A DNA stretch of 63,106 nt, filler included, from Intoshia linei (lineage: Eukaryota > Animalia > Orthonectida): the NCBI GenBank assembly GCA_001642005.1. It is 7 parts of 7 records of this genome, joined end to end, with 100 filler letters (N's around TTAATTAATTAA, not from the genome) between each part and the next. Parts side by side here need not be neighbours in the genome. Positions count along the whole stretch, not along the records: positions 60,570 to 63,106 come from LWCA01002284.1; 6 more parts are not named here. One strand, 5' to 3'. A program made the translations under genes and the position numbers. Under the pieces are notes generated by a model, which saw only the letters and a program-made list of their open reading frames with translations, did not search any database and had not been told where the DNA came from. Positions 6,119-63,106 of this stretch are shown here, in pieces (within the stretch, counting starts at the first letter, position 1; each line of letters begins with the position of its first letter).

Positions 6119-6639
6119 CGATATTGTATTCACGATATGCATGATTTGCAGTGTAAAATTTACATTTTGCATTAAGAATTGTATCTAATTTAGACATGCA
6201 CAATAAAAATGCAACAGTTAAAAAATGTGCTAAAAACAGACTAAAAATGCAGTCAATTTCTGGTTGCTCTAATTTAGACTCTGAATTAAAAAAGAATGTT
6301 CAATTAAAGTTCAATCACATTTGAAAATAAAATTTTAGCCAAACGTGAATAAATTTACGTCCTCCACAATTTATTAAATTAAAATTTGTACATTCAATGA
6401 TTGAATGTACTAATGTTGACTAATAAATAGGTTGGCATGCATTCGTAAGTGTATTTGCGTGCTTGTTTTTATGAAAATATAAATTACACCTTTTAAATAA
6501 CGTACTTACACTTGCATATGATGTTGACTTAAATTTAAAGCTTAAATAATTTACAAATTTACACTTTTAAATTTTCATTTTACACTCTTATTGCGATAAT
6601 TAATTTAATTTTATCTAAAATTTAAATTTAAACCAAAAC

Positions 6640-9008: not shown

Positions 9009-9913
9009 AAATCACTACTTGAAAGGCTTAAAAATGAATCATTTTTAGAATAAATTATCACAAGAGATGAAAAATGGGTATTATGGGATAACACAAAATT
9101 GAAAAAACAATGACTTTCACCAAATAAATCTCCATTATGTACCCAAAACCCAATTTACACTGTAAAAAGATTATGTTATGCATATGGTGAGATATGGAGG
9201 GTGTGGTATATCATGAATTTGTAAAAAACAAAGAAACCATTAATTCTGATAAATACTGTGAAAAATTAGAAAAATTAAATCACAATATTTACCTGAAAAG
9301 ACCACAAATGTTTCGTAAAGGCAATATTATTCTACAACAAGACAATGCTAGACCTCACACTTCTAAAAAAACCTATCATCTTCTAAAGGAGTTAAAATTT
9401 GAAGTATTACCACATCCACTGTATTCACCAGGCTTAGCACCATCTGATTATTACCTATTTAAAGNAACAATTAGAAAAATTAAATCACAATATTTACCTG
9501 AAAAGACCACTAAAGTTTCGTAAAGGCAATATTATTCTACAACAAGACAATGCTAGACCTCACACTTCTAAAAAAACCTCTCAGCTTCTAAAGGAGTTAA
9601 AATTTGAAGTATTACCACATCCACCGTATTCACCAGACTTAGCACCATCTGATTATTACCTATTTAAAGCTATGAGTAACCATTACTATGGTAAAAAATA
9701 CACTTCAAATGAAGGGTTAAAATTGGACAGAAAAGTTTTTGTCCAATAAAGTAGCAAGTTTTTATGCTAATGGTATAAATAGACTACCGGAACGTTGGTA
9801 AAAGACTGTGGAAAGCAATAATGAATATTCTATAATATAACTTTATTTTTAATGTAATCAAATAAACTTTTCAATTTTGTTAAAAAAACGACATTACTTA
9901 TGAAACGACCTAA
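9009..9913 (+). mobile_element. Mariner (DD34D) transposase pseudogene with 3' TIR
   Basis: ITRDEKW, KKIMLCIW, QQDNARPH, HPPYSPDLAPSDYYLF motifs; several stops and frameshifts; 3' TIR ...acgacattacttatgaaacgacctaa-TA. Confidence 0.95.
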
Positions 9914-10179
9914 TAATATATATATTTATTTATATATGACATAATTAGTACTATGATGTAGTTTTGTCGTGATAGATCATTAATAAACCATATTTGCAGT
10001 TCGGTATGGGGTGGAAAAATTTGATAATTTTTTAATTATCAGAAAGTGAAAATCACATAAATTATAATAGTAATCAATATTCCAAAAACACGATTATACT
10101 CACAGATTGAATACAATTGCCAACCCCAAACGAACTATTTATATCGTAAATTATTATACTAATGAAAAATGGATATTAC

Positions 10180-13100: not shown

Positions 13101-13504
13101 GACTTATTTACTTTAAAAGTTACAAGTTGAACGGTTAATTTACCGTAAGCATCAGGTACAAAAACTTTTCGTGTCAAAATTTGTTCATTAACGTTGATTG
13201 GTGCAATTTTTTGTACAGTAGGTGGTATGTATTGGCGAATGTTTAAATTTGGAAGGGTAGGTGGTTTTATTATAACATCATCATCCGAACTTAGTATATC
13301 GTCTTTTTCTGTCAATTCTTCAGAATCTAACGCATGTAGGTCTGCTTTAGATAATTTCAATTCATTATTTATTCGATCATCAAATTTACTGTATACTCTT
13401 ATTTCATCTAAATTTACAGCATCGTGACCGTTTAGTTTATCCTAAACTCAAATAAATTTAATTTCACTTAATCATACATTAAGTTTATCTTTATCAACAT
13501 CCAT
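10180..13504 (-). CDS. SBNO1: Strawberry notch homolog; exons 13504-13478 and 13441-10180; C-terminal exons missing from the contig
   Basis: LSALQLESI, GFLIGDGAGVGKGRTIAG, IIFDECHRAKN, YSSATGATEP, AEMTGRK, ISEAASSGISLH, WSADRAIQQFGRSHRSNQ, FLNRILG, DMGIM. A 36-nt GT-AG intron at 13477-13442 joins ATG 13504 in frame; donor GTAAT at 10179. Paralog number not resolvable. Confidence 0.95.
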
Positions 13505-23200: not shown

Positions 23201-26200
23201 TTTTAATAAAATATTTACTAGTCGATTTAAGTCGACTCCGACAAAAAATATCGACACCGATTTTTTGATTCGGTTCCAATCCCTAGTCATAATCAATTTT
23301 AATCATTATTTATATAATATTCTACGTAATATTTGTTTGTGTGTGTGTTCTACTTTATTTCAATAACTAACAGTATTAGAATTTTATAAAGTCCACATTT
23401 CAATGAAAGTTTTTTCCGGGGGTGTTAGCAAAATAAATTTTAACCCCCCCCCTCCAAACTCACATCTTACGGTTCAAAAACACCAATTGTCCTTTTTTAA
23501 AAAATCAAACGAATTTGAGAATTTAAAAAAATATATATGCTAATATGGATTTTAAAATCATAAGCATTATCATAAATTTAAATTTAAAAAAATTATATCT
23601 TCAGGGCCAAAACCCCAAAGAACCCTTCTTTTTTTAATGAAAACAGATCTAGAATTTAAAAAAATGTACAGGTGGTACAATTGTACCCTGTTAACACACA
23701 TAAAAAATTTCAGTCCGAATAAGTGACGACTTTAGTTAGTTGCTGTTTGTACCAAGTACAAAACAGTCAAGCTAGTTAATTAGTATAATCATTAGTTTAA
23801 AAAATTACACACATTCTTCCATGCCTTTTCAAGATAAAAAGAAAACATCAATTGAGCAATATCGGTAAAACAAGATTGATAAAATCCAATTAAATGTAAT
23901 TGAGGAAAAGACAAATTTACATTATCAATAGAAATGTAAAACAGTTTATTAAACCTAAAACTAGCATCCACATCAAAACTTTCAATTTTAATCTGATCAA
24001 TAAGAAACTGAAAAGATTCCTGAACAACCGAAACATCAAAAGATAAAAATTCGACAAAATAATCGAAAATATTGAAAATTTCCATTAAATACTCTTCTTC
24101 GACATTAAAAATAAATGGAGAAATTTTAACATAAAATTGATTAATTTGAATAAATAAATTTAAATCAAATGTACAAAATACACTAAAAAGTGTGTCTGCA
24201 CAATTCTTTTTTTTAAAAACATTGACAAAATTAAAACAATCACTATTTTCTGCAAATGGACATAAGACGGATAAATCCGACATGGTCATGTAAAAAGTAC
24301 ATGAAACAATATTATCAAAGGATAAATCTGAATCAATTGACAGACTTTGAATATTAACAAATAAAAATTCACTGAAATTATCAATATCACAACATTGTTG
24401 AAAACTGTCTTTAAACTGTTGATAAAATTTAAACTGAAAATTTGAAACTTTAAAAAAAATTTCAAATTTTGTCTTTTTTAACGAATTATGTAAAGGCACA
24501 GACGATTCATTAGGCAATAAATTAATAAAAGAATTTGATACACGAGAATAGATTTTTTTGGAAATAAAATTAGAATCTTTGGATAAAAATGATAATTTAT
24601 TATTTGGTAAATAAAAATGAGGATTGTTGCTAAATTTGACCATATCAGGCAACATCAAAGTAGATAAATTTGCAAATTCAAAATCACAACCTATACCATT
24701 AAATATAAGAGTAACATCAACTAATATTTCATTTATAAAGGTTTTGTAAATTTTAAATTTTCCATAAATATTTTTAAAATTTTCACAATGAATAGAGAAA
24801 TTAAATTGCTTTTCGGTATCATTAGAAAAGAATTTATCAATATTAGAAAAATGACAGAAATTTTCAACATCAATACAATCCACAGAATCATTTAGAGGTA
24901 TAATTATGTATAAACATTTGAAACAATTTATAAAATTATCAATTATAAAATTTTGAGAGGTTGACTTTTGAATAAAAATGACTGTATCATCAAGATCAAG
25001 TAAAGATGATATTTTAAAATTTGATTTAATTTTGAAATTTAATAAAATTAAATCAAAATTGTAATTATTTTGAATAAAAAAATTTGTAATAGGTAAATTG
25101 TAATTAATTTCAACATTAAACCGAGACACAAGTGAATTTTGGTTTTTAAAATGAATTTTTGACCATTTAAAATTTACTGAAAATTCAACTTGATTTTTCA
25201 ACTCGTATTTAAACCCTCTTTTCAATTCGACATATTTTAAAATCTTCAAATTTTGTGGTTCTGTACAATTCCTTGTAGAATCTAGAGAATTTTGTGAAAG
25301 ATATTTAAAATTTTTACACAAAAATATTGGATATTTAGATATAAAACAATTTTCATAATTTAAAAAACCAGATAACCCTTTTAAAATTGTATTGAGCTGC
25401 ATTTCACATTTAAAATTCACATAAAGAATGGAAATGTACATTTCTTGCAATAATTCGTTTTGAGAAAGTGGTAATTTCGTTAAATTTTTTTTCAATAATG
25501 TAAGGGTAAAAATATTTACAAATCTGCAGCATTTTGGTGGTATATAGATATAACAAGGTGTAATTTCTTTTAAAAATGTATTCAATTCATAATGTACCAA
25601 TTTTTCAACATTATCAAATAATAAAAGACAAATTGATATACCAAAATCTAAATTATTGTAAAACTTGACTGGATATTCAAATTTTATGTGTAAAATTTCA
25701 AAAGTATTAAAATTGAAAAAATTTGAAATTTTAACAATAGACATAACATGAGGATATATAGTTTGAAATGGTACATATAAAGATGTATTTTCATTGGTTT
25801 TAATGTTATATAAGCTTTTAGAATTATTTTCAATTAAAAACAAATGTGTTTGTAAAATATTTTTAAAATAATGAATCACATTTTCATTGATACAATTAAC
25901 TCGTGAATTTGCGGGGAAAATAAAATTTTCATTAAAATTTTTAAAAATTAAATCAACTTGTATACAATTCAAAACGTTACATAAAGTTGATATAAAAATT
26001 ATATCCAATATACCACATTTGAAATAACTTTGTAAGCATTTTTCATTTTGAATAATTAAGTTTTTTTCAGATTCGTCCAATTCATCTTTTTTTTTGTTTG
26101 ATTCAAGAAAAAATTGTTTCAATAATAAAATTGGTTTAAATAATAATAATTTTCCATCAGAATTATAATTCAAGTATAAATGACGTTTTGATGATTTGAA

Positions 26201-29200
26201 AAAATCATTACAATAAAATTCATCAAAAATATTTAAATTATATAATGCTAATTTTTGAACCACATTAATATATTCACAAAAACAATCAAATGTCCAAGCT
26301 TGCACCATATTCAAATTTTTTTCACTTTTTTCAACATCTTTTGAAATTTTTGAAAATGACTGTGCTTGATTTAATTTATCTAAACTATACCATGTGCATA
26401 AATCTTGTTGAATATTAAAAGGATTAACAAGATAAATTAAAGGTAAAAAATTTACAGAGATGATGGAAAACTTGATTCCATCAATACAAAATATTCGATC
26501 CGTTACACTAACTTTTACATAAACTCCATCACACATTTGTTTAATATAGATAATATTGATTCCGTAAATTGACAAATTTTTATTGTCTATTTCATTTTCT
26601 AGATTTGTAATATTTGTATTAAATTCCAAAAATTTTAAATTTTCAGAAAAATGAGTCAAAGATAAAACTTTTTTAAATGTACATTGATTTAAGAATAACG
26701 TTTTATTGGTAAATGCAAAACATTTACTTAAAATGTTGAATTCATTTAAAATACACATTTCTCGGCCAGGAAAAAGTTGTACACTTATTCCTTTAAAATT
26801 ATTATTTAAAAAGTGTATATATAACGGAAAAGTTGTCCAATTTTTAACTTGTAGTGTAGATTTAATATAAAACTCTAAAGTATTAATATGAGAATTAATT
26901 TCAATATAAAACAAAACTTTTGAATCAATAATAATTGGAATAGTTTTTTTATTTAAATCAAGATAAAATTTAAACTTTTTATCACTAGTTAAAACCAATT
27001 CAACATGACACGATGAAATTAAATTACATTTTGAGTATTTTTTACAAAAAGTTGTTACAAGAAATATTGAATCTATAAAAGTAAAATCACAATTTGTTAA
27101 ATTAATCAGAGTTGCAGTAGATATTTTGACATCATTTATATCAAAATCATTAATAATGTGTTTATAAAACATGTAAACATTAAAAATTGATTTCATACGT
27201 TGTTTGTCCATATTAACCAAAACTGAAGAAATATCAAATTTTAAACAATCACAAAGTGACAAATTTAAATCTTGACATTTAAATATATTAGAAAATTGTT
27301 GACTTAAAATATTCATAATAAATATTGAGATACCATTGAGTTTTGAATAATGAGATTGAAAATTTGTACTAAAAGAGAATTCAAATAATTGTAGTTTGAA
27401 ATATTCTTGAACATTGAATGTATGATTTAAAGCAAGTTTTGTTTCACTATTTATTAAAGAAAATTTAAATAGTACACTTTTAATAATAAAGTGAATAATA
27501 GATAAATTTACACTGCTGCAATTATTTTTTAAATCATTAATATCATCAAACATTCGATTTTTAGACGTTTGATATTGATTAACAAAATTAATAAGAAAGT
27601 TTACCAAATATACATGAATATTATTTAAATTAATGAAAATTTCATCAAGCATGATATAATTGACAGTTTTATGATTAAGATTCATTCCAGCATAAAGTCC
27701 ATCAACAGTCAAAAGGTTTATAAAGGGACAAACAATTAAAGGAATTGATTGATTATTAATTTGAATTAATAAATCAATTAAACTAATCTTTTTAACAAAA
27801 CTAGAAATTAAAATTTCCAAAGAAAAATGAAAAACAATTTCTTTACAAACCAAATCAAAGGTATCTTTTAAAAAGAGCAAACATTTAGGTAAAAAAGAAT
27901 AATTTTCATTAATCCTTTGTAAAACAGATTTGGTATCTTTATCCACAAATAACGAAATTTTGAATTTATCAAAAAAGAAATGACAATAAGAATTTTGAGT
28001 TAAAATTACATCAAAATTTAATTTCAACGTATCGGTAATTTCATTCTTCAAAAATTTGAATTGTTTCAAATTTATTTCATTTTCCCAAGATTGAAAACAT
28101 GTAATATACAATTTGTAAAAATAAAACAAAACATTTAAATCATGAATATTAACCAAGTATTCATTTTTTAGAGAAACTATGATCCAATCAATACAATTCA
28201 TCTCATTTTTATTAAAACATTGAATAACTTTAACAGATTTAAAAAATTTCAATTTTGAATTACCTTTATAAAAGTTTTTTTCCTCTTTTGGATAAATTTC
28301 AGAGATTAAATCGAAATTTGATACTTGGCATGTGTAAATCAATTTAAAAGATTTGTTTATCAGATTTATATATGTTTTAGGAATTTTATTGTAATCATCC
28401 GTAGTTAATTCAGTACTTTTCATTTCCATTAAAATTAACACTATTGTCCTGTTTATATCTCTTAAATTTAAATAAAATTGCAATTTTTCTACAATAATAT
28501 CAACATTATAAAAAATTTTATTATTTTTATCAATTTTTTTTTCTTTATTGAAAGGCACAAAAGGTAAAAAAGTAGATTGATATAAAAGTGCACAATAAAT
28601 CAACTTTATAAAATCAATATTAACATCAACATTAAATATTAATTTGCAAAATTTAAATATCACAGAATTATCGCTTTTTGAAAGAGAAAAAAATGCAGTA
28701 TATATAGATTGATCAGGTTCAATAGATATGAACAATGTTGAAATGTATTGCAATTCACAGAGAGAATTAGCTTTTACATGATTATAAATGTTTTCATCAT
28801 TGATTGATAATTTTGAAACTTTTAAGAGAATTTCAAAATCAATTTTTCCACATTTAAAAATAACATTTTTTAGTTTACTGCTTTTGTCCATTTTAAATAA
28901 CATTTTTAAATTTTTTTTTAATTCATGTAAATCATTTTCTAGTTTTATGTGACGATTAAATAAAATTGTAAATAAACATTCCATACTAATCATTTTTTCA
29001 AAATACCATTTAATCTGCAAATCAAAGTTCATTCGTAAACTGAATAAAAAAAAATTTACTAATTCAGTTGAACTGTAAATATTCATATCAATTTCATCAT
29101 CAAATTTGATTGAATTTTCAAGTAATACCATTGAACCCACAGAGTCAAAATCTTTTGTTCTAATAATCAGTTTACTTTGAATATTTAATAAAGTATTGTA

Positions 29201-32200
29201 AATAAATGCACAATTGTACAAAAATCTTACATATAAATTGATACAACGTGGAAAAACGTGAAAAAGAATCAACATGGATTGCTGTACATCACTTTGTTTA
29301 AACATTTTATCGTAACATGCAAATATATCACTAAAATATGATAATGAATCTCCAATATTAAAAAAATCGTCAATTTTTAAAACATGATGGCAATGATACC
29401 ACCTAGATTCTAGATAATTCAAAATTTCCAAACAAATTTCAATTTTTATCAACATTTTCGCTTCAATTTTTTTTTTTAAATCATAAACAAAACTTAAATC
29501 TTTTAGATACAATGCCAATACATTTCCTATTCCTTTATCCGTCTTATCCTTAACATTAAACATTTCCTTAACTAAATTTAATTCACTGAAATTTTCAATA
29601 AAAAATATTGACGAATGAGAAGCAATTAAAACAACATTATTGATAGAAATGTCAAAATTTTCTAATATTCCCTTTTCTTCATTTAAATTTGACTTTTTCT
29701 TCATTTCATTAATTTCATTTCCACATTTCTTTGATTCAAAATGTTTATAATCAAAAATTGAAAACAAATCAAATTCACTACTTAAAATAGACATCATTAT
29801 CAAAATTTGATGTAAATATAAAAATGTACCTTTAAATTTAATTAAACAATAAATTTTTTCGGTAAAATTCAAACTCATTTGAACATTTTTTTCATTATTT
29901 AACGTTGAACATATTTGAAAAATTGGAATACATTTTTTAGTAAAATTTTTAAGATAATCTTCACAATATACAAATGCGGAATCTAGATTAAATCTAATCA
30001 TGGAAATTTTAGATTTCGATTTATCCAAAAATTTCATAAAAAGAAAAATTTCATTGAAACAGAAATTATAGTTGCGATATAAAATATTTTTGTAATAATC
30101 AGCATCATCACCTGATAAACAAAGATAATTTTTAATATTTTTTAAATTAATATGATATACCGTACATTTCAATGTAGCAACAGATATTAAAATATTATTG
30201 TACAAATGTGAGCAGGAAAAATTTTTTTCAAATTGATAAAGTTCTCTAACCCTAAAACGTACATCAGCAGATAAATTTTCATTTGAAATTGTGGAATAAA
30301 TCATTCCGAATTCATGTATAGTAATTTTTAAGAGTTTATTGCAATGTTGAAAACACGTTGAATCGCTGTTTAAATTTATGTATACATTATCAATTAGTAA
30401 CTTACATACATACTGATTAAAACAGTATAAATATAAAATATAATTAATTTCCATCTTTTTAAGATTAATTTCTAGACCATTTATATAATTTGAAACAATT
30501 TTAACATTAAATATTATCATTTTAAAATCTAACCATGAATTATTACAAATGTTACCAATGTTTGATAATAAGGGTTCCGTTTTAATAATAATATTCTCTG
30601 TTGAATCCATATAAGGCTTGTAGCGTTTAATATAAACTGAATATATCAATTTTAGCGTATATACAAAATGTTCATTAAATATAATATCTTGATTTGCAAT
30701 CAATAATAAATCTTTACGAATATTAAACATTTCACAATCATTTTGAATAAGATGGATAAAAGATGTGTATAACATGGCAAAATTACACTTATTCATACAA
30801 AAATTTACAAAATTTGACACATTTCCAGAAAAAGTTGTCAAAATGTATGAAAATATAACATTTAGCTTTGAATCATTTTCAATGTGTTTGTTTCCGTTAA
30901 TTGTATATACGTCATAATTTTGATTATTATAATTAATTACCGTATTAATATGGTCTATAGATATCGCTTTAAAATTTAATATACCCAAGTTATCCGACAA
31001 TATATTGAGATTCATATTGGATATGGTTAAAAAAATTTTTCGATCAGACAAATCAAACCTCTAAATTTTTTATTTAAATTTAATTTCTTAAGTTAATAAC
31101 ATTTTAAATCAGTGGTCACATAACTGCGACCAGCGACATGTTATTTATGATGATTTTTAGGTTCATAACCAGGCTCTTCATAAAATAATTATAAGCGCAA
31201 TTATAATAATTGCTTATTATTAATTTATAACATTTATATACATATTAAGTTATATCCTAACTTATATAATATGCTACGCAATTTTTGTTTGTGTGTGTGT
31301 GTTACGCTTTATTTAAATAACTATCAGTGTAAGAATTTTTTAAAGGCCACCTTTCAATTACAGTTTTTTCTGGGACGTATAATAAGAGAAATTTTAACCT
31401 GCCAATTTCACATCTTACGGGTCAAAAACCCCAGTTGTCCCTCTTTTTGAAAATCAAACGATTGGAGAATTTTAAAAATTCTATACGCTGATACGGATTT
31501 TAAAATTATAAACATTACCATAAATTTAAATTTAAAAAAATTATATCTTCAAGACCACAACCCCAATTGACCCTTCTTTTTTTAATGAAAATAGCCCTAA
31601 AATTTCAAAAAATTTACAGGTTGTACAGTTGTATCCTGTTAACACACAAAAAAAATTTCAATCCGAATAAGTGACGACTTCACGGTCAAAAAAACATTTT
31701 AGTATTCATATATTTTTTTTTCGAAATATTTTATTAAAACAAAAAATGTAAAATAATTAACGGTCCGAAAATTAAAAAAAAGAAAGATTATTCTGATAAA
31801 GCTTATTCCAGTTGATATAAATACAAAATTTCAACCGAGAAATCTAAGCATTCCAGATGAAAAATAATTTTTAATATATTATCAACCAATATTTTTCAAA
31901 TATTTTGATTAAAAAGTAATATGATGGTTCCATCTGACACAAATTTGGGAACCACTCCTTTAAAGGATTGATAATAGTTAATAGTAGGATTTTTAAGTTA
32001 GATTTTCAACGTGAATTTATTTTTTAAGTATAATAAAAATGTGCTCTCGGCAGAGCTAGGTCCTGTTTGTACGTAGTATGTAAATTTATTTTTTGGTAGT
32101 ATAAAAATGTTCCCTCGGTAGAACTAGGCTACGGGGATTGATAATAGTGAATAGTAGAATTTTTAAGTTAGATTTTCAACGTGAATTTTTTGCTATCATA

Positions 32201-34467
32201 AAAATGTGCCCTCGGCAGAGCTAAGTGCTGTTTGTACGTAGTACATTAGGGTGCCACACACATCTGAATTTTAATTGCGCGTAGTGAAAATTCGTTGCTC
32301 TTAAGCAATGTATTCACTATGTCGTTTTTAAAATTAACTAAAATGATCTGTTTGATCTGCAGGCTTTAATCAAAGTTTTACAAAATTTGGAACTAATAAA
32401 CATCAGTTCAAACTATTTTACATAATTACTACTTTTAATTCTAATTTTCATCACCTCTACTCGAAATGATTGACAATATAATAAAATTTGTCCATTGTCT
32501 GAAGCGACATACATTTGAGCGATACATCTTAAAGCGAAATAATAATCGATTTCACTAATTGATTATATCACTAGTTGACTGTTATGTACCACGTACAAAC
32601 AGCGTCTAGCTCTGCCGAGGGCACATTTTTATTCTACCAATAAAATGAATTAACAATAAGAAAGTCTAACTTAAAAATGATGCTATTCACTATTTTCAAT
32701 TTTGTATCAATAATTAACGGAATCAGCACGTTAAAAACATGTTTCTGGTAAGTTTTACCAACATTGCAAAGCATTGTAATAAAAATAAAAATAACAAAGT
32801 TGTACTTTTTTGTTGTAGTTTTAGACTAAATGAAAAAAAATCCGAAGGAATCAATTATATAGATTTCCACCCACATGTCATTTTTTATTATCATAATATT
32901 AATGAATTTAAAACTTTTTATTAGAATGTGTACTTTTTATAATTCTAGGACGAGTTTGAATTTAAAAACAAACCACAATTTTATTATTATATTATTATTA
33001 TTCAAAATTTCAGAAATCATAATAATTATTGCAATAATTTATTTTTTCAAATTTTTTTTGCAATAAAATAATGATTGGGCCTGCTCATTATTATAATTGG
33101 ATTGTTTTTAAAATTTGACTATCATTGTCAAAAATTAATTAAAAAATTGGATTTAAAATTAAAAATTCAGTCCTACGTAGAGAATCTCCTGTTTGTACAA
33201 AGTACATAAAATTCAAGCTAAACACAATATAAATATAAAGCTTGAAATCGATTGGAAACTTCACAGAAAGATTAAATAATAATTATAAACATACCTGTTT
33301 TGGTAGAATGAGAGAAAATTTTAAGAGTAAAATATTGATATTGCATAAAACTATAAAATTGGTTGAATCTTTGGAACCAAGACTAGAAGAATTACAAGAC
33401 ACATTATCTGAATAGTGAATATTTTTTTTATCAGCATGTTCATTTTTTCCATAAAAATCTTTAAAAATACCATCAAACCAATAATTACTATCTGTCGTTA
33501 AATCATCAAATTTATCAATAGATTTATCTTTATAACTTTTCTGTTTATTAGCATTAATTTGAGAAATTTGCATTATAACATGACTAACGGTGGAAACTAA
33601 TTTTTTAAAAATATTAAATTTAATAGACGTAATAGATATTTCTGCAAGATTAGTCTGTAAAATATATTTATCTCCACCAACCACATCATTAAAAAAATTA
33701 GCATAAAAATCTGACTTTAAATCATCACCTTGTGTGGATTCAGTTGTTATATATTCATTTTTAATTTTAATAAAAATGGTATCAAAATGTAAATCTTTAA
33801 TAAGGTGCAATTCTTTTAACTTTGAATTTAAATTTTTAAAATAGACATTGCAACCAGAGCAGGATAGCATGCGAGTTAAAATTTTACAAGATTCATTAAA
33901 ACATTCATTATAATTTGATGTATCAAATAAACTATCATTTTGATCGAAATATGTAGATTCATCGTCTGTACATACAGATTTTATAACAACATCACTTGCA
34001 GTCATATTTAGTATAGTTTTCTCTTTGATATCAACGTAAACAAAATTAAAATTTTTAATCTTGTATTTTATATTTGACATGATGGAATTGTAGTATGATG
34101 ATAAATACGAATCTTCTTCTACATTCACATTAACATCATTTTTATCTTCAAAGTTTGATCTAACATTCGTCATACAATTGTCTCCCAATGAAGATGATTT
34201 TAAGGTTAGGTTTGTAATTTCTACTATAATTGGTTTTGACATGATGTAACGCCATTGAATTTGAACTCGGAATTTATCAATTATACCTGATATCAATTGA
34301 ACTGGTAAATTTAAAGACGATTCAAGTTGGTTCAGTTTAATTGATACATTTGATAAATTAAGTTCTCCCGTCCATAAAGAAAATGACAAGTTTAAATTGT
34401 CAGTATCTATAAATTTAGAAATGTATCTTATCAATAGAGGCTCGATATAAGAAGATATGTTAAACAT
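20248..34467 (-). CDS. VPS13B: VPS13B-like bridge lipid-transfer protein, ~3090 aa; exons 34467-33295, 31060-23809, 23055-22879, 21376-21221, 21152-20900, 20580-20403, 20331-20248
   Basis: Chorein-N start SYIEPLLIRYISKFI...FSLWTGELNL...LNLPVQLISGIIDKFRVQIQW matches the VPS13B-type N-terminus. C-terminal ASLSIIGNPAMFIKSIYNG...LVKGLSKG and GSVGLFIKPTIG match the VPS13 C/ATG2-C region. All introns are GT-AG with compatible phases; exons sum to 9273 nt. The last two exons are less certain. Confidence 0.85.
23139..23285. mobile_element. 147-bp hAT MITE
   Basis: TIRs tagggattggaaccgaatc / gattcggttccaatcccta; perfect 8-bp TSD gtcataat. Confidence 0.9.
23309..23775 (+). mobile_element. Non-autonomous Helitron-like element
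   Basis: 3' hairpin ctgtttgtac-caa-gtacaaaacag followed by CTAG|T; body similar to 31255-31690 and ~960-1140. Confidence 0.7.
31255..33220 (+). mobile_element. Composite Helitron-like cluster in VPS13B intron 1 (tandem sub-terminal duplications, inverted copy starting 32571)
   Basis: A|TC 5' start at 31255; repeated ctcggcagagctaggtgctgtttgtacgtagtac blocks at ~32046 and ~32211 and inverted at 32571-32630; degenerate 3' hairpin at ~33188-33220. Confidence 0.65.
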
Positions 34468-35662
34468 ATTTAAAATTGATCAATTATTAACATTCTAAAT
34501 GTTTTGTATATCAAAAAAATATACAATAACAACTTTACTTTATTTAATTCAAAAATTCAATTAGTATTTTACTTGTGATGTTACGTAGAATAAATTATAT
34601 TAAAAGTTTGGTATGTTTATATTTGATGTTTAAAATACACTATAACATGACACACATGTAAGGCATATGACAGAAACCACACACATTTAGTATGAGTTAA
34701 TGATTAACTTAATCGAATCAAATATTATACATCAAAGTATCCATAGAGATATGCCGCTCCTTCGAGCATACTAGTTTGGGCTGTGCTGTGTTAAAAATTA
34801 AATATAATAAATTGATGTATTCAATTTTTTTATTATTTTTAATTTTCAATTATGTATACGTGGATAGCTTATCAACGGTGATATTTAAATTAATCACTAT
34901 TTTTTGATATCTACAGAATCTTTTTTTTACAATTTTTTTTTTGTTAATAATTTGTAAATCAAATTTTTCTTTTATAGGTCGATGTTACCTTTAATCGTTC
35001 TCATTACACACTAAGAGTATTCTTTCGGAAATCTTTGTGATAAGCTATTACTATATAATGTAGTTACTTATATAATGTCTACATGATTTCAATTTAAATC
35101 TTGAATAGATGCGATTATAATCTTTTAAAATGGTATGCCCATTATTCAGGATTTTTAAATTTTTTATAATTATGGAATTGAATTAATCACTTAACAAGCT
35201 CAATTTCTTTTTGAAATTTAAATAAATTTCTCGCACAACTGATGCATCCTATTCGAAAGGATTCAAGTTTTTAAAGTACAATTATCGTTAAGTTAGCCGA
35301 TAAATCTACACCAATATTAAGTTTTAAATTGAATTGTCCATTCAAATAATTTTTTTGTATACCCGCGGATGTTAAAAATGTTCTGTACTAGATATTAACC
35401 TAGGATACTTGGGCTAATTTTAAAATGTATATTATTTTTAAGGGTCCATCCTTCAAATATGATTTTATCTAATATATATGATAATTTTTTGTAGTTTTGA
35501 TAATAATATTCTTTGGGCTTAAGTTTCTAAATTTTGATATATTTTAAAATAAACTGTATACTAAAGTCCCTACTTATTGACAAAATTTGAATTTAAAATT
35601 TATAACGAATCGTGGGGGTTTAAGAATTTAGTGTAATTATGAAAATCCTGTAATTGTAATTA

Positions 35663-37289: not shown

Positions 37290-38037
37290 TTAATACTGCA
37301 AATTTATTCAATATGCAGATGACCTAAAAATTTACTCAGTAATAAAAAATTTTGCAGACAATGAAAAAATACAGAAAGATATTGACTCAATATATGAATG
37401 GAGTAATAAACATAATTTACCGTTAAACTTAAGTAAGTGCAACGTCATGCACTTCACACAAAACAAAAACGACTTTTACCCCACGTTAAAGATCCACAAC
37501 CACGTACTACCGAAAATAACCTCTGTCAAAGATTTGGGAGTCACGTTTACAGATGATGGGAAATTCGACCAACACATTGAACGCGTTGTACGTGCTGCTA
37601 AAATTGAGACATTCAGAATTAAAAAAACTATTGCCTTGCGACAACTCAAATATCTACTTCTTCTGTTTAAATTATTTATTCTACCAAAAATCGAATACGC
37701 GAGCCAAGTTTGGAACCCATCAAAAAAGGATATAAAACGTCTCGAATCTGTAAACAAAAAAATCTATTCTGTTCTAATATGTCACTTCAACATAGAAGGT
37801 CACTCACATTCACTCATGGACCTCAACCTCATCCATAAAATACTAAATTCAAATATAATCTCACCTATCCAATTTAACTACACAACAACCCGAAAAAATA
37901 TTTAAAAAACGATTTGCGACAAACCTCCACAAAAATTTTTTCTACAACCGAATAACGAACTACTGGAATCAACTACCCAAAGTAATTACATCACTCAAAT
38001 CCTCAACAGTTTTCAAAAAGCAAACCACAAAAGTTAA
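37290..38037 (+). mobile_element. 5'-truncated CR1/L2-like LINE reverse transcriptase fragment
   Basis: QYADDLKIY at ~37309, then WSNKHNLPLNLSKCNVMHF, VKDLGVTF, PKIEYASQVWNP; frameshifted 3' part with YWNQLP. Confidence 0.92.
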
Positions 38038-52100: not shown

Positions 52101-54621
52101 AAAACTAAAACAAGAATAACATCTTTGTTACTTAATTAATTTTACCTTTATTTCACTAAATATTTGAAATCTTAATTATATATGTTTATAAAATGCTGAT
52201 TCCTTTAATTATTGATAGATAATTGGTATTTTTAAGTATTTATTAAAATTAAAAACATAAATTGATACTGAATATATATTATCATATTAAAAATGATAAA
52301 ATAGGTTTTATTAATTTTATATTTTCTGGAATTTATGAATATATTTTTGACAATTTTTAGGATTGGACTGTTTTTACTTTATTTTTAATATTATACACAT
52401 ACTGTCTAATAAATTTTAAAAAAAGTGACAATTGTTTTTAAAATTCTTTACGCAAATTTTAACAAAACAAAATTAAGATGGAATAATTCACTTTAAAGTA
52501 AAAAGTAATGTAATATGACGGTTTCACCTGAAACAAGTTTAAGAACCACTCCTTTAAAGGATTGATCATAGTGAATAGTAGGATTTTTAAGTTAGATTTT
52601 CAACGTGAATTTATTTTTTTTATAGAATAAAAATGTGCTCTCAGTAGAGCTAGGTGCTGTTTGTACGTAGTACATAACAGTCAACCTAGTATATTATAAT
52701 ATTTGAGGAGATTCATATTTATGTAAAATTTTTGGAATAAATTTTTTTATATAAATTTGAATGTTAGATTATATACAATGTAAATTAACTTACGTAAATG
52801 ATAATGCAATTATGGCACATATAACAACAATAGCATCAAGAATGTTCCATATATCACGCAGATAGGATTTCGGATGTAAAACAAGCCCTCTATCAATTAT
52901 CTAAATAAACGTATTAAATTTTTTTTATGAATCATAATGTTAAACTATCGTACATAATGAGGATTCGCTGATAATTATTAATAATTATAATTGCATGTTT
53001 ATTATAGCTGAAAATTATAATTTTTTAAAAATATTAATATTAATAAGCGTGGTAATTAGATTTTTCTTAAAGGAGTATGTATATATCTTCATAAATATTT
53101 TTAATCACTTTCAAAAATGTATTTTCTTTTCTAATATCGCATAAAGTATGCAATATTAGATCATGTCAAAATTTTATCGGGTTTTAATGTGTTTTTAAGC
53201 AGATGAAGTTGTTTTATTTCAATATTACCTAGTAGAATATGACCACAAAAAATATTTAAAATGATTTATTCAACCAAATCGGACATTAAAAATTAAATTT
53301 TATCAACTCTTAAAAACAAATTCCTTTTTACAACATTTTTTTGGAATAACCCAATTTAGAAAACCTTAATAGAAAAAATGCAATCATTACGACCCAAACA
53401 AATCCAAAGGTATTGACATGTTACATGTAGTAAAAATGTTAAATAATAAAAAAAATCATGTAATATAATTAAGATGTACAAACTAAATAATTTTAATTAA
53501 TGTTTTTAATTTCAAAATATATACTTATATAAAGTACATATAAGTAATTTAATGTTGTATATAGTTTACTAATTATACATCATCATTTATAATAAAATAG
53601 TGTAATAGTGAAATAAATTTGTTTGTTAAATAAAAAAATACCGGTGTAAAAAAAAATCGCCAAACTATAATATACTATATAATATTTTTAGATAAACTGT
53701 CTTCAGAAAAATTTTTTAGATAAATTGTCCGAATACCATATTGAGTGGTTTAATTTAATTATTCACATAACTCAGAAGTGTTATATTACCTTTAGAATCA
53801 TTTCAATAGTAAATATAATAGTGAAAGCATAATCTATATAATCCAATATATCGTTTCTTAAAGAATCACTATGTACAGGATCTTCTGCGGCCAGAGCTAT
53901 GGAACTTAAACATATCACTATTGTTATAAATACGTCGAAATATTTATAATTAACAATTATGTGAATTAGTTTTCTAAACCTAAGATATATGATTAGTTTT
54001 TATTAAAATGTTGAAAATATAATTTTTTTATTATTTATTATATATATATTGATACTACATTTGTATTTTAAAATTTAGACTCAAATTAGAATATTTAATT
54101 TAAATAAATTAATCTTAAAATTTAGAATCTACTGTCTTTTCTCGATTATAAGCAGACCCCTGAAATACAAATTTTCAGTGAAATTTTTAAATAAATAAAA
54201 TTTGAATATAAGCAGTTTTTGCTTGTATTCGAAAGAAAAAACTTTAAACAAAAAATAGACATTTTAATTTATTTCTAAAAAATAACTTCCTTCATACAAT
54301 AGAATGTCTAATTTATAAGTTTATACTAATTAGAAATAAACTTTTAGTGTATTTTTTATATTTTTCAAGGTCTGCTTCAAAGTCTGTTTTTGATTATAAG
54401 CATTTTTTCTTCTACTCTCGAATATAAGAAGACTTCTTATAATTGACAAAAGACAGTAGTGTATAATGTTAAGACTCTAAATTTTTGACATATGTTTGAA
54501 AGCCTGATATACTTATTAAAAATATTATAGTACTTATTTTCTGACTTCAAAATAAAAAGAGCTCTATATTGATTTGTTGCTGCTGATTTATTCGAATCTT
54601 GAGATATCATTTGCGGCTTTT
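46131..54621 (-). CDS. Voltage-gated calcium channel alpha-1, Cav2 type, domain III to IV-S1; exons 54621-54534, 53979-53790, 52900-52794, 50840-50738, 49353-49193, 48221-48078, 47608-47407, 46295-46131
   Basis: [26 protein letters not shown]4 [30 protein letters not shown], pore loop [10 protein letters not shown]6 [23 protein letters not shown] (Cav2-type wording); all splice phases compatible. Confidence 0.95.
46375..46998 (+). mobile_element. Tc1-like remnant in Cav2 intron
   Basis: [26 protein letters not shown]-terminal Tc1 motif; inverted ttttgagcac / gtgctcaaaa ends. Confidence 0.7.
48619..48961. mobile_element. hAT MITE nested in a Tigger-like MITE (~48319-49047)
   Basis: TIRs cagggcttcgcaac / gttgggaagccctg; TSD atttagca / atttagtc; outer ends ta-cagtggaactcgt / acgagtttcattt-ta. 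Confidence 0.75.
51072..51580. mobile_element. MITE with TAGGGTGTCACA termini
   Basis: tagggtgtcaca / tgtgacatccta; degenerate 8-bp flanks acgatcat / accggcat. Confidence 0.6.
52520..52689 (+). mobile_element. Helitron-like 3' end
   Basis: gctgtttgtac-gta-gtacataacagt hairpin then CTAG|T; the same block occurs at 58345-58398 and partly, inverted, at ~60170-60300. Confidence 0.7.
54132..54456. mobile_element. Tc1/mariner-type MITE
   Basis: TA-ctgtcttttctcgattataag / cttataattgacaaaagacag-TA. Confidence 0.8.
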
Positions 54622-55475: not shown

Positions 55476-58400
55476 TTATTCTTCAGAGCTTTGACTTAAA
55501 TTGAAGCTGTCATCTAAATAAAATATAAAAAATAAATATAAATTTTAATTTAATAATAATAATTATTAATCTATTATAATAGATTAATATACGATACCCC
55601 TAGATAAATTCGGAAAATATGCCAAAACTAAATAGTGTAATGAATTCACTCTATTTTCCTAATAGTGTTCATTACAGATTTTTCAAATCGTATGAACAAG
55701 TTCGTGTTGCGTATCACCATCAAAACGGACAACAAATTTTTTAAATACATTGACCAATTTTCCTAGAATTTAAAAAAAATATTCTGAACAGCTTATTCCA
55801 GTTCATACATATACAAAATTTCAATGTACATCATTTCTGAATCTAAATGTTACATCAGATTTTTTTAACATAACTTTGCAAACAAATTGAAATAAGCCAG
55901 CTGAAAAAAATAATGATACATATAATCAAACCACTCGAATCAGAGACGCCAAGCATTTCCAATAATTCGCAATCATTTACTTGTTTCAAATCTACACTGT
56001 CTGATAGTAATCTTGATTCTTTTGCTTTTTCAATATTTTTTTCGGACAAATTTGATTTTTCTATAGATTCATTATTGTTAAGTTGTTTGACCTTTCTAAT
56101 TAATGTAAATTTTACCGGAATTGAAAATTGTATGCAAGTGTAAGAAATTATGTAGTTATATTTTAGTAATCAATTCAAAAAATTGTTTAACCAAACCTTA
56201 AATAAAAAATAATTTTATAAATTCTAAGCCAAGATATTATCAATATTTGTTGTTCAGTTAAGGCTGGTTGAAAATGAGGTTTAATTGATACATTAAATAT
56301 GTACATTTTAAATGTATATTTCTATATTGTACTTTGAAAACATGTCATTAGCTTACCTGAGAATTCGTTAAAGTGGATTTTGTAGGATTGATCAAATCCA
56401 ATTACATAAGTATTACCCAATCAAATGTATTAACATAACGTTTATTAAATTATAAGGTTTAGAAAATTTTAATTTTGCTATAATTCTGGAATCTAGAATC
56501 TAGAATCTAGAATCTAGATAAACAATATAAATATTCAAACCTAGTGCATTTGACTTTAACGTTGCATGATATTTTTTCCAAAATAAATTTTTTTTCTATA
56601 GTGTCATAAATCAAAATACATTCCTTTGGTACATTTCGATTAATGTTTCCCTTAAATAAAATTCCTCGATTTGTCTAAAAGTTACTAATATATATAATAT
56701 ACTTTAATTAACAAACAAATTTTAAGCCAAAAATTTTTATACGTGATCAATGATCATAGATAAGTAGTTTTGGCTTTAAATTTCATATAAAATAAACTAA
56801 ATTGATAGTTTTATACTAAGACTCTTAGTACAACTCTTTACTACTAAGTAAAGGACTCCTTTGTAAGGATTAGGTACACCAATGTTATATTGTATTTAAA
56901 TTTACATCCTATATGTTGACAATTTAGTCTGTTTTATTGTTTTAACAAAACGGCTAATTTTTGTTGCATACATGGAATATGTGTTTACCCTTTGAGGCAG
57001 TGGTTTTCAACCCGTGTTCCGCGGAACCCAGGGGTTCCGTGAAATATAAATGCGATATTTTTCAATTTAAAGTTTTTCTAAATTACTGTGGTATGCAATA
57101 AAACAACATCATTTCTCAAATTTAAATCAAATAAGTTTTAATAAAAGTTTTATACGTTGTGAGTATGGGAACCTGAAAAATGATGTTAAAAAGTAATAAT
57201 AATTCAGATTATCTTTATGAGAAATATTGTAAAGAAAATAGGTTTTTACTGGCCCAACTCTCTTGAAATAATTTAAATAAGTTACTTACCTCTTTATAAT
57301 GAGAGATAACTAAAAAGTTATCTCTGTCGGGCCTCGATGCTTCTTCGTTGTGTGAGGTAGGCAACTGGTTTTACCGGCTAAATTCCGTGTGTTATTAATT
57401 TTTTAATTAAAAATCAAATTGTTTTATGTATGCGACATGCGAAAAAAATTTTTGATTATGCTTTTAGGTGCCGCGATTTTTTGAAATTTCATAAGGGTTC
57501 CGCTTAGTAAAAAAGGTTGAGAAACACTGCTTTGAGGAATGCATTACACATATACATGTAAATTTATTTTCACAAAGTTTATTCATTCCACATATAAATG
57601 TAAATTTAATATCATGAAATTTATCCATTCCACCGTTTCATAAAGGGGTTTTTACATAATTAGAATGATTGAATTTTTATCTTTTGATATATTTTACCAT
57701 ATTGTGTCAATTCCTGAATGATTTAATTATGAAATAAGCAAATTTCAGGTTTTAAGTATACAGTGGTTTCTGTTCAATATGAATACTGTATAATATGAAT
57801 TCACGCTTATATGGATTTCATGAAAATAAAAGTTGTTTTTGTATAATATTTATTATAAGAAAAAATTTTTAATATGAATTTGTGTAAAAAAACATCAATT
57901 TGTATTAATTTTCTATCACGTGACTTATAAATTTCAGAAAAGTAACCATTCAATATGAATTTGAATTTGAAGAGGAAAAGATTTTTAGATAAATGATAAA
58001 ATAAAATTCATTAAACTGACGAATATTCAAATCGATCTCAAAAATATTTAGCCACCAAACACTCAATTTCAGTAGGTTTGATAAATAAGTCGTTAAAAAA
58101 TCGTGAAGAAATCCTTAATTGTAATAATTTAAATTTGAATCAGAAGAGACAACCTTGCCTAAGGAAATCAATGAAAATTGAATAAGTGGTTTCAACGTCA
58201 ACGGACATTAAGTATAAGTGGCAATATACTGAAAGAAATGGCGCTGGAATAGATTAGGAATGACTTAAATGATTGTTAATAATAAGTAGCATTTTTAATT
58301 AAGATTTTATTATTGAAATTATTTTTTTGATAAAATTAGATAAGTCCCCTTGGCAGAGCTAGGTGTTGTTTGTACGTAGTACAAAACAGCCAAGCTAGTA

Positions 58401-59021: not shown

Positions 59022-59072
59022 TTTCGAAAAAGAAAAATTTAAAAATAAAGTTATTGTATTATAGAATTATTT

Positions 59073-59933
59073 ATGGACCTACCAAAACACAAAAAATCAA
59101 AAAATTGTATATTATTAACTAGTACTGAAGAAGAAAATTTAAAATATCAAGATAAATCAATTTTATCTACCAGATTAGCTGACAAAATTGAAAAAAATGT
59201 TGAAATAAATTGGGATAAATTTTACAACCGGAACAATGATAATTTTTATAGAAATCGATATTGGTTTAGGAATGAATTTCCGAAAGAAATTTTTTGTATT
59301 CAAAATTTACAGTTTCTAGATGTTGGTTGTGGAGTAGGCAATTTATCTTTTCCATTATACCAATATGTTTGTAAACTTAAATTAGATTGGAATTTTACAT
59401 TGATTGATTTTTCACATAGAGCCATCAAACTTGTAAAGGTAAACGTTTTTTGTTTATAAATTATAAATATAATTATTTTAATGATCACTGATTACGATTT
59501 ACATGATTTACTGATTATCGGAAACAATTTTATTCTTTTTACTAATTTATGATTTTATTTTATATTTTTTTTCTAGGAAAACCAATATTTTAATAAAGAT
59601 GAAATGACCGCATTACACTTTGATATAGTTCAGGATTTAGCATTTGATGGAAAAGTTTTGCAAATTGAAAAATTTAATTTTGTGACCCTAATTTATGTTC
59701 TATCAGCAATACACCCCAATAATTTTTGTAAAGTTTTAACCAATATTTTTAAGGTATTTTATTTTATCTATTTATAATTTTCAATTTTTAGATAATGAAA
59801 CCTGGTGGATATCTATTCTTTAGAGATTATGCCATCAATGATCATGCAATGATTCGTTTTAAGAGAGATAGAAAAATATCTGACCAATTGTACGTTAGGC
59901 AGGATGGCACAAGATCTTATTTTTTTGAATTGA
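59073..59933 (+). CDS. METTL6: tRNA m3C methyltransferase METTL6; exons 59073-59438, 59577-59753, 59792-59933; 3' exon missing
   Basis: NWDKFYNRN, LDVGCGVGN, DFSHRAI, VLSAIHP, KPGG...FRDYAINDHAMIRF, YVRQDGTRSYFF. DHAM and RQDGTRSYFF are METTL6-type rather than METTL2-type. Confidence 0.92.
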
Positions 59934-60407
59934 GTAAGATTTCAAACTTATTATATATTCAAAGATAATAACAAAAGAATTATCAAGAAAAGTTCATCAA
60001 TATTACGCTGATGAATGAATTATTTTTAATTTGATTATCTGATTACATTACATAAAAAAGTGTAATTTTTTAACTACTGTACATTAAAATTTTTAAAGTA
60101 TAATATGCAATAAGTCAAGGCCCAATTTATGTGATAATAGGTTTACTATTATATATTACGTAAAAACGGTATCTAGCTCTGCCGAGTATCGACTTTTAAT
60201 TCTACAAAAAAATAAATTCAATAATAAAATCTTAGTTAAAAATGCTACTATTCACTATTATCAACCCTTTAAAGGAGTGGTTCTCAAACTTGTTTCACCA
60301 CGGACCGATCATATCACATTACCCTTTAATTGAAATTGAATTATTCCCACTTAATTTTATTTTGTGAATCTTTGTGTAAATAACATTTTTTGTGTTATTT
60401 GAATATA

Positions 60408-60469: not shown

Positions 60470-60599
60470 NNNNNNNNNNNNNNNNNNNNNNNNNNNNNNN
60501 NNNNNNNNNNNNNTTAATTAATTAANNNNNNNNNNNNNNNNNNNNNNNNNNNNNNNNNNNNNNNNNNNNAAAATTTTCAGTTTTTGTGATATATTTAAA

Positions 60600-63000
60600 T
60601 ACATTATGGACAAAATTAAATGAGTTATTGGAGCTTCAGGGCTGTACGTAGATATAGTTGTTCTAGCAGGTCTATAAGCAAAGAAACCCGTACCAGTATA
60701 AAGTCCTGACCACCTCTTCATAAGATGGTAAAGTGAAATAGGGGCCGAACATATTTATCGGCATTTGCATCTGTAGTTTTCCCTTGTAAGCAAGCACCCG
60801 AATCCATTTGTCTGACAGCTATTTGCGGTCTAGCGAATTTAATCTCAGTATCATCAAACACTAGGAATAGCAAGTTCCAAAGCAGGAAAGGAAACCCAAA
60901 CAGCGAGTAGTATAGGTCTAATACTAGCAGCCTCAGGAGAGACAATATCAGATATCAACTGTACTTCAACTTTCCACACAGGTCTAAGCCCAGAATAGGC
61001 TGAATGTCTAAAGTAAGGTAGATCCATTTCCTCCATGTATCCCTGCACGTCAATAGTACGTGTAACTTTTAAATAATTCATGGCAAGATAAGAATAGGAT
61101 GGAGTAGCAAATATTGCAACTCGAGCCGCTATTATTGCAGATGCACTAAAATGAAAATACAATTTAACACCACTGCGTGCACAAGCAAAATATTGTGCCA
61201 GGTAACCAGCAGGAGTAAAGACGCTACTGCCTAAAAAATTATTAGATATGTGTAAAGTAAGCGTGAGGTCAAGAATTTTATTTATATTAAAGAAAGTCTT
61301 CCATGTATAAAACATTGGAATTTCGCCAATAGCTCAATCGACATATTTTCTTTTTTTATTTCTATGGGTGACTGTTTATCGTCAGCCCTATAAGACAAAG
61401 TCAAAGCATTTGAAATTCCAACCGAATGCGAGGTTGAGTAAGCGTTTCTTGCAAATAATGCAGGGCCACTTTCAGAACGAGGGTGCGAAAAACCTAAAGA
61501 CGCAGCCAAAGATATAAAGTTAAAAGCATGGCCAACAAAGGTTGTTATATCTCCCAGGATAGAAAAGAAAGTCTGAGTCCAAGTTCCAGTCATTTCTTCT
61601 TTCTCTTTTTTAGCACTGTGTCCATAAGCCAAATGTAGCAAATATTCCTCAGTAACCATAGATGATTCACTGTCTGATGTTATAAGTTGCAGAGCCTTGT
61701 CTATCTCCATAAGTCTAGCTATCTGCCTATCTACATCATCAGCTTCACTTTCCTCTTCACTTATCCCAGAGTCTGATTGCCCCCATGCAATAGCTGTAGC
61801 TAGTCCAACTTCAGAAAAATCATTATACAAAAGACCAGTTTGACCAAGATAACCAAAAAGGCGAACATTGGAAAAACGAGCCCATATCAAAATCTGAGGA
61901 GCATCGAGATCTGAGGGCTGAATAGGAGTTAACTTATAAAGATCAAAATGACAAAACTTGCTAACGTCTGAAATTAAATTACTAGTAAGATCCTGTGGAG
62001 GTTCAGTGATTTCACAATGAGTGCCAATCCAATTCAACGGGTAATGCCATTTACAAATATAAGTAACAGGTGGACCTTGCGTAATCGGAATAACTTGATG
62101 TGGACATTGAGATGCTGTAGAAACATGGTCATAAGGACTCCAATCTGATTGGTGGTATTCAATGGTAATTCCAGCTGTTATAGTAATTAGCTATCTATTT
62201 TGTCCCATTCCTGGTCTTATAACACCAAGAATTTGGCCATAATGAAACTTGGTAGCTACGACATGTATTTCGACTTCAATATAAAATCTAAAACCTCTTG
62301 CTTGAAACAATCTATCACGAATATAAGATTGGTTCAACAGGAGCATAGTGGGATTCATCCTAACAAATGGTGTTGATGTCGGATCAGTATGATCTAATGT
62401 AATAGTTTTAAGTAGAAAGAATCTCTTAAGAGACTGAGAATATTCGCGACCCCACTCAAAACTAGCATCTAACGTAAGAAGTGCAGAAGCAGTAATTGTT
62501 GGTAAATCACCTTCAAGTTCAACAAATTTAGTAAGATTTTCAGATTTCATAGTCTTTTCAATTATTCCTATTTGGGTTTGATCTATATTAGCAGATTGTC
62601 CAGTAGTAACTAATGTACTATTTTCAAGATAACCAAAAGAAGGATCCAAAACGAATTCTGAACCAATTGGCCTTTTATTACCTTGCATATATTTCATAAG
62701 AATGGTATTATAATCAATCTTTTGAAAGTCATACTTAACGATAAAATCTGAAAATTCATTCAATTGTTGATTATATACATGTTCTCCACGTTGAAAAAAT
62801 TCATAAAAAGCACACTCTAATAAGGTTTGACATAATTTTTGCATTGACCAATCTCTTGTTTCAGGAGTTCTTCTAACGTATGATATATTGTCAGTAATCT
62901 TCTTTACTTCCATTGGCATATACTAAACTCCAGATTGTTTAATAAAGTAACGTTGCAAGAATGTAATTTAATTAATGTATTTCAGATTTTGTCTATTTAT
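60600..63000 (-). pseudogene. Endogenous picorna-like (+)ssRNA virus fragment: RdRp C-terminus plus capsid VP2-VP4-VP3-VP1(N)
   Basis: RdRp motif E ITFLQRYF (62967-62944) and thumb YEFFQRGEHVY; jelly-roll motifs VVATKFHYGQI, ASQCPHQVI, IWARFSNVRL; VP4/VP3 site LGF/SHP; VP3 TPAGYLAQYF, TIDVQG, DLPY; VP1 SLYHLMKRW; no introns; in-frame stops and frameshifts. Confidence 0.9.
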
Positions 63001-63106
63001 CGTGAATAATTTGACATTTTGTCAAAATATCGTTTGTGTAAGATATCGAGAATAACCTGTATCTCTTCATAGCTATATTTAATAATTTTAATTTTTAAAA
63101 TAATTC

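Follow-up and report, generated by a model that had tools for sequence, protein, structure and literature searches.

Our analysis shows that the end of the analysed stretch of the Intoshia linei assembly GCA_001642005.1 (63,106 nt, hereafter the window) holds a decayed fragment of an unclassified picorna-like virus, and we hold with high confidence that this fragment is real, viral and very likely integrated in the DNA of I. linei. The virus-derived element lies on the minus strand at 60570–62973 and represents, in about 2.4 kb, approximately one third of a Picornavirales polyprotein. The 2,537-nt contig that it occupies (60570–63106) forms the scaffold end and stands behind a 100-base gap. 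Judging from its coding content, the element should be unable to make a virus: helicase, protease and catalytic polymerase motifs are lacking, and the reading frame has six breaks.

The sequence-only reading had described a single minus-strand polyprotein opening with the motif ITFLQRYF and interrupted by a series of lesions, and most of this description stands. The motif is read from 62967 in a single minus-strand frame, and the TAG stops at 62925–62923 and 62193–62191 are present. The frame changes near 61320, 60855 and 60752 (the last previously placed at 60745) were confirmed by homology to the closest virus, P0003, along which the first frame can be followed to approximately 61310, the second from 61330 to 60857, the third from 60852 to 60751, and the first again from 60754 to approximately 60625; each segment was tested against 300 shuffles, and none scored as well (0/300). 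A fourth frame change, additional to those listed before, lies near 60622, and beyond it the final 15 codons ahead of the contig edge (60620–60576) match both close relatives in an identical register, with a score equalled by 3 of 1000 AT-rich host windows. The total is therefore two internal stops and four frame changes. The TAA at 62970–62968 had also been counted as a lesion; the stop is present, but it sits on the junction between virus and host repeat and may mark this junction rather than a lesion, because another copy of the repeat extends to 62974 and the 12 frame-by-relative tests of the sequence upstream of 62973 revealed no consistent viral homology (the best two were equalled by 2/300 and 12/300 shuffles, in registers not continuing the match).

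The proposed order, with an RdRp C-terminus followed by capsid domains, is borne out by the alignment to P0003, of which the element spans residues 1539 to ~2337, and by the domain matches of the relatives. The polymerase part (62596–62967, minus strand; motif E and thumb) aligns with P0003 1539 to ~1660, beginning inside the RdRP_1 match of that protein (1260–1604); it contains the stop at 62925–62923, is devoid of the catalytic motifs A–D and closes at a GQ motif that is also found in P0003. The first capsid domain (61777–62595, minus strand), which carries the stop at 62193–62191 and has 30 or more viral protein matches, follows in the frame of the polymerase without an intergenic region, and Rhv matches occur at this place in the relatives P0006 (218–291) and P0007 (1794–1888). 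From the order of the domains it is presumed to be VP2-like. A peptide of 53 residues (61618–61776, minus strand) lies between two GQ-type motifs, in what would be a VP4-like position; P0003 has GQ at both ends of the matching stretch. The second capsid domain (60808–61617, minus strand) is a VP3-like jelly-roll by predicted fold and includes the frame changes near 61320 and 60855. Next comes the N-terminal fragment of a third capsid protein (60570–60807, minus strand), VP1-like by position, which includes the frame changes near 60752 and 60622 and reaches the contig edge; the C-terminal domain of P0006, its counterpart in that relative, has a CRPV_capsid match. GQ motifs stand at four boundaries of P0003, of which two are kept and two altered in the element, and cleavage is predicted there. 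Of the three jelly-rolls claimed from the sequence, two are thus complete, but the third is represented by only ~90 of the ~205 residues of the relative. The first and third capsid domains are assigned as probable jelly-rolls because the relatives homologous to them have Rhv and CRPV_capsid matches. The element contains neither end of the viral genome, where VPg and poly(A) would be expected.

Direct capsid and RdRp profile matches had been expected, but Pfam gave no match for any frame of the element; the PDB sequence search likewise gave no match to it. Of the outcomes named beforehand as speaking against a viral fossil, this absence of direct profile matches is the only one that occurred. 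Structural evidence comes from the unbroken frame 61333–60857, which was modelled on an alignment of 27 sequences (pLDDT 89.5, pTM 0.84). The model matched chain C of CrPV (Z 15.0, rmsd 3.0, 157 aligned residues) and of a marine algal Picornavirales member (Z 14.9), whereas calicivirus chains scored lower (Z 13.2–13.3). Matches to chains C of deformed wing virus, Triatoma virus and cricket paralysis virus had E ~1e-8 and TM 0.76–0.82, and the best viral fold-model matches included Fesavirus 1 and bat felisavirus (TM 0.85–0.88). According to this model, the middle capsid domain is predicted to fold like the VP3 of dicistro- and marnaviruses. A single-sequence fold of 61285–62190 (pLDDT 33.8) yielded no usable model for the first capsid domain.

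A phmmer search against 1.84 billion representatives returned 40 proteins at E ≤ 0.001. The best non-self match, P0003 (2,453 aa, Logan), is 49% identical over query residues 2–554 (E 9e-156). An RNA helicase and RdRP_1 precede the matched region in 10 of the 17 scanned relatives, nine of which also have a 3C protease, and in the closest intact relatives (P0003, P0004 and P0005) this block has the order helicase-protease-polymerase. Among the 28 of 39 non-self matches that were looked up by name were three other I. linei models, 12 named picorna-like viruses (one identified via a cluster member) and 13 unnamed or hypothetical proteins. Over the polymerase end and the first capsid domain, the element is 52.8% identical to P0003 and 42.2% to P0004. 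The phylogenetic tree of the same region has 38 rows, with the self model, P0034 (match in a different region), P0040 (repeat-like) and P0042–P0046 excluded. It placed the element together with P0003, P0004, Cryptolin calicivirus 1 and two of the other I. linei fragments in one clade with support of 100/99 and no inner resolution. Homology, tree and fold agree on a picorna-like origin, and the source virus is undescribed, as had been suggested, since its best relative is unnamed and only 49–53% identical. P0043 and P0044, unnamed NCBI proteins on contigs of 927 and 946 nt, are 69% and 74% identical to P0003 and may represent another virus close to it or endogenous copies elsewhere. A scan of IMG/VR gave four pattern matches, none confirmed.

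P0003 and P0004 share with the element a single-frame plan of helicase, 3C protease, RdRp and capsid, with the GQ motifs of P0003 at the same four boundaries; they are intact, whereas the element has about one third of their length, is broken and resides in host DNA. Two named picorna-like relatives, with 36.5% and 31.3% identity to the element, have the replicase before the capsid as well. The named relatives are exogenous and none comes from an orthonectid, whereas the element is endogenous. Cryptolin calicivirus 1 and Sphaeripse virus presumably come from trematodes. The name Sphaeripse is absent from the main text of PMC9241645. The two named relatives with 36.5% and 31.3% identity fall, according to the text of 10.1101/2025.06.19.660416, into one clade of marine-invertebrate viruses, and Fesavirus 1 and bat felisavirus are given without family assignment in PMC5364608, as far as its text goes.

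The source virus belongs to an unclassified group close to Cryptolin calicivirus 1, and Caliciviridae, Dicistroviridae, Picornaviridae and Iflaviridae were rejected on several grounds. Caliciviridae are defined by a single major capsid protein with one shell jelly-roll and a protruding domain, whereas the element has two complete jelly-rolls and a third begun, and CrPV chain C outscores the calicivirus chains. Dicistroviridae have two frames and an intergenic IRES, but polymerase and capsid are joined in one frame in the element, P0003, P0004 and P0005. Picornaviridae and Iflaviridae, with the capsid N-terminal to the replicase, disagree with a capsid that follows the polymerase. Marnaviridae are a candidate placement by their replicase-then-capsid order and by the near-best score of the marine algal chain; there was no named marnavirus among the 28 looked-up matches or in the tree.

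The element is GC-richer than its surroundings, as had been noted (37.5% over 60624–62700 versus 25% in the rest of the window), but this is a poor mark of foreign origin, since host exons match it (34.7% in SBNO) and the polymerase part of the element has 27.7%. CpG depletion is the better foreign signal: the observed/expected ratio of the element is 0.55, lower than in any of the 92 host windows free of gaps, which have a minimum of 0.57 and a median of 0.95. The third-position GC is 0.19–0.27 in the element and 0.16–0.26 in host genes.

Evidence for the presence of the element as DNA comes from two sequencing runs, X1 and X2, which belong to two studies released in 2016 and 2024. X1 represents DNA, since its contigs are unspliced across the introns of the neighbouring host gene. 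One X1 contig of 2464 nt covers 60570–63030 without an indel and crosses the junction of virus and repeat; it has no sequence variants inside. X2 holds the neighbouring host gene in spliced form together with cover of its introns; it covers 30/30 bins of the element, and among the X2 contigs listed, both stops and all four frame changes are crossed. Neither run has an indel in the viral part, and both depart from the assembly at the same two bases. These lie at 60985 and 61725, where the assembly probably has either errors or the letters of a minor allele. Because the stops and frame changes are identical in X1 and X2, they are not sequencing errors, and the view of the lesions as real is upheld by this base-for-base agreement between a DNA run and a second study. 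The sharing of the element by two studies supports germline inheritance indirectly. The claim of a germline integration thus stands as to the DNA form, the fixed lesions and the right junction, with the chromosomal germline location probable by inference. The X2 pieces listed stop at 62944 and resume at 62974, leaving 62945–62973 open, and X1 may be the source run of the assembly, so that the right junction would be without an independent bridge. X3 covers 3/30 bins of the element, and X5 covers neither the element nor the host contig; neither result is evidence of absence. Spliced joints were also found in X3.

The other genes of the window are ordinary eukaryotic ones. A SAM methyltransferase gene at 59049–59965 (plus strand), presumably METTL2/6-like by motif, has introns of 138 and 38 nt and is spliced in X2 and X3; an ELL-associated factor (EAF) gene at 55858–56674 (minus strand; Pfam PF09816) also has spliced joints in both runs. 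A Strawberry notch homologue occupies one open frame of 1,095 codons at 10154–13441 (minus strand), and a VPS13-like gene at 23792–34479 (minus strand), with an N-terminal Pfam match at 33286–34479, has an open frame of 2,422 codons with 21.5% GC. The 373-codon frame at 6619–7740 (plus strand) has no Pfam match and may resemble the MondoA/ChREBP conserved region.

The sequence-only reading had both ends of the element grading into AT-rich host DNA, which does not hold for the left end. This end is missing sequence at an assembly gap (60470–60569; 44 N, a 12-base linker and 44 N), which hides the other end of the element; the window contains six gaps of this style. On the right, the element adjoins a dispersed host repeat at 62974–63061, which is common to several contigs that part from one another directly behind the TA at 63060–63061. 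The summed X1 depth of this repeat is 146–250. Loose ends behind 63061/63062 occur in five X1 contigs and one X2 contig, with a variant end at 63038, and two X2 contigs carry the sequence from 63060 onward with a different sequence before it. Of the two host junctions expected, the right one is joined to the host repeat in X1 only, and the left one falls in the gap. We infer that the repeat is a DNA-transposon-like end at TA, of which one end is present; such a signature presumably indicates a family of the Tc1/mariner/pogo type. A search for the partner end in the window gave 4 matches against 3.99 expected, and this end could lie in or beyond the gap. No poly(A) was found at the element; flank alignments for a terminal repeat or target duplication around it were matched by 117/500 and 195/500 shuffles, and a repeat search around it revealed short chance pairs only. 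One X3 contig (159 nt, depth 3.7) joins 60570–60623 to 63016–63050 via 53 other letters, and this joint coincides with the fourth frame change. Its interpretation as an empty host site was rejected, since 60620–60576 is virus-like.

Other mobile sequences are present in the window. Two overlapping, near-repeated mariner-type transposase fragments lie at 9191–9749 (plus strand), where a tandem copy or an assembly join at N 9465 is possible; no link between them and the flanking repeat was established. A reverse-transcriptase fragment (RVT_1), which we assume to be of the non-LTR type by motif, occurs at 37294–37905 (plus strand). A short dispersed repeat family, likely a miniature transposon, has copies 74–80% identical at 60120–60330, 52499–52692, 31913–32083, 58265–58400, 32574–32699 and 32135–32246, with summed X1 depths in the thousands.

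Three further I. linei gene models of the same virus group, annotated as hypothetical, were found: A3Q56_06002, A3Q56_06784 and A3Q56_08461 (P0008, P0032 and P0034), on contigs of 14,058, 10,533 and 1,836 nt, the first two of which exceed the 8.0–8.5 kb contigs of the closest complete relatives. Their identity to the element is 41%, 46–53% and, in blocks, 57–85%, respectively. P0034 runs into unrelated sequence beyond residue ~163. Two features had escaped the sequence-only reading: the genome contains at least four fragments of this kind, and the element adjoins a transposon-like repeat end. With 2 stops in 790 codons, and 3.9–4.8% of single changes giving a stop, the decay corresponds to 1.7–2.2% substitutions per site, an estimate that rests on two events (95% range 0.2–7.8%); the element keeps 67 of 114 conserved columns, compared with 71–74 in live relatives. 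These values indicate that the element is young, with an estimated divergence of about 2% since insertion. The divergence between the fragments exceeds what decay explains, so they probably stem from different viruses, and the other three are likely separate captures; an older duplication may explain the closest one. The capsid-end bias of the fragments may be apparent only, because word-based protein searches were insensitive: with P0003 as query against shorter proteins, nothing beyond P0043 and P0044 was recovered, although I. linei fragments are known, and two further searches of this type yielded one match each.

Picornavirales have no DNA stage, and a host retroelement reverse transcriptase would therefore have copied the viral RNA into DNA; the fragment at 37294–37905 comes from such an enzyme. 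This copy was probably captured by repair at or within the TA-flanked, DNA-transposon-like repeat and inserted into the germline of I. linei, at a presumably chromosomal location, and it has since most likely been decaying neutrally as a fossil. Together with the three other diverged fragments, it likely shows that the orthonectid lineage was infected repeatedly, by several viruses from a single clade. As a refinement of this explanation, the virus piece could be the cargo of a non-autonomous TA-flanked DNA transposon, with 2–4 near-identical copies collapsed in the assembly and shorter derivatives besides. We regard this as a tentative possibility, somewhat unlikely as matters stand. The isolated contig of the element, the repeat ending at TA and the X3 contig with its joint on the fourth frame change would agree with it, as would the X1 depth of 22.6 on the element versus 2.8–8.8 on adjoining unique host pieces; this depth, however, is not a copy number, and the GC bias, which can lift it, is uncontrolled (36% GC in the element versus 25%). 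Moreover, the X3 contig is single, has a low depth and comes from a run with spliced transcripts, so that it may be a template switch, the second end of the repeat is unseen, and the X1 contig is without variants.

Integration in a different genome or none at all would have to be reconciled with the same data. I. linei lives inside another animal, and the element could belong to an invertebrate host or co-parasite travelling with the samples; X2 stands under a different organism label, and the contig is joined to the scaffold only across a gap. We consider this very unlikely, since the X1 depth does not fall short of that on genes of I. linei itself, the flanking repeat is common to many X1 contigs, the third-position GC lies within the host gene range and the label I. 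linei is carried by three other fragments. The least probable reading is that of viral DNA outside the chromosomes, or of a contaminant virus, live or defective, whose lesions are sequencing errors. The contig is short and isolated, and the 49%-identical complete virus occurs in public runs, but the agreement of X1 and X2, with no difference over the covered part, makes errors or a mutating RNA virus unlikely, and the unspliced DNA run contains the element, with one of its contigs linking it to a host repeat. The annotated 620-residue model A3Q56_08327, together with the complete cover of the element in X2, a run with spliced host transcripts, might point instead to a domesticated, spliced host gene or to a kept source of antiviral small RNAs, the latter a speculative role already suggested from the sequence. 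The two introns of this model remove core capsid strands and sit on the breaks, no splice joint lies inside the element among the contigs listed, and an X2 contig (61145–61412) continues across the second predicted intron without interruption; the neighbouring gene has X2 cover over its introns as well, so the X2 signal could stem from DNA or from precursor RNA. We consider a domesticated protein unlikely and this reading as a whole improbable, though less so than a foreign genome or a contaminant. The preferred explanation remains a decayed viral fragment in I. linei DNA.

That endogenous elements of Picornavirales are uncommon, as had been stated, agrees with a database-wide polymerase screen whose text reports eight eukaryotic sequences (PMC12548735); Intoshia is absent from this text and from two supplementary files. 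The dicistrovirus-like elements TgEVE3/TtEVE3 of horseshoe crabs, as described in the text of PMC12282059, resemble the element of I. linei in deriving from Picornavirales and in occurring in marine invertebrates, but they have arthropod hosts and similarity to a dicistrovirus polyprotein, and thus represent a different virus group. The nodavirus-like element eBxnv-1 of Bursaphelenchus xylophilus, captured inside a transposon according to the text of PMC5177903, is comparable as a positive-strand virus fragment associated with a transposon in a small invertebrate genome, with an assembly gap adjacent and as the first evidence of such a virus in its host. It differs in having an LTR retroelement and an intact polymerase frame, whereas the I. 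linei element has a TA-ended repeat, is mostly capsid, is broken and is accompanied by other fragments. One sentence in PMC6396948 mentions an RdRP gene of a viral family in I. linei, likewise with the idea of a transfer from a virus; the text does not give the virus family, and its seven supplementary files contain no accession. Since the screen reported there required a near-complete RdRP domain, which the element lacks, that gene is likely another locus. No description of orthonectid viruses or of these loci was found in the open-access papers and preprint main texts searched, among which the I. linei genome paper did not appear. The element is probably the first evidence that a picorna-like virus infects the phylum Orthonectida.

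Overall, the element and its relatives in the genome correct four "hypothetical" I. linei gene models and add to a group of elements that is rare in endogenous form, although Picornavirales are abundant as live viruses. They tie a host to an unclassified clade that has mostly been met in mixed marine samples and in faeces, sources that leave the hosts uncertain. That one small genome carries four diverged fragments indicates repeated access to the germline, which suggests that these viruses replicate in the orthonectid itself. Two questions can now be tested: the persistence of a live relative in I. linei, and the processing of the fragments into small RNAs. A more far-reaching scenario, which we consider unlikely and slightly less probable than the cargo alone, is a repeated recent capture of the capsid end from a clade of picorna-like viruses infecting I. 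linei, at least in this case inside a TA-flanked transposon that copied and trimmed it. If true, one of the most reduced animal genomes would contain a mobile viral memory in multiple copies, which might feed antiviral small RNAs.
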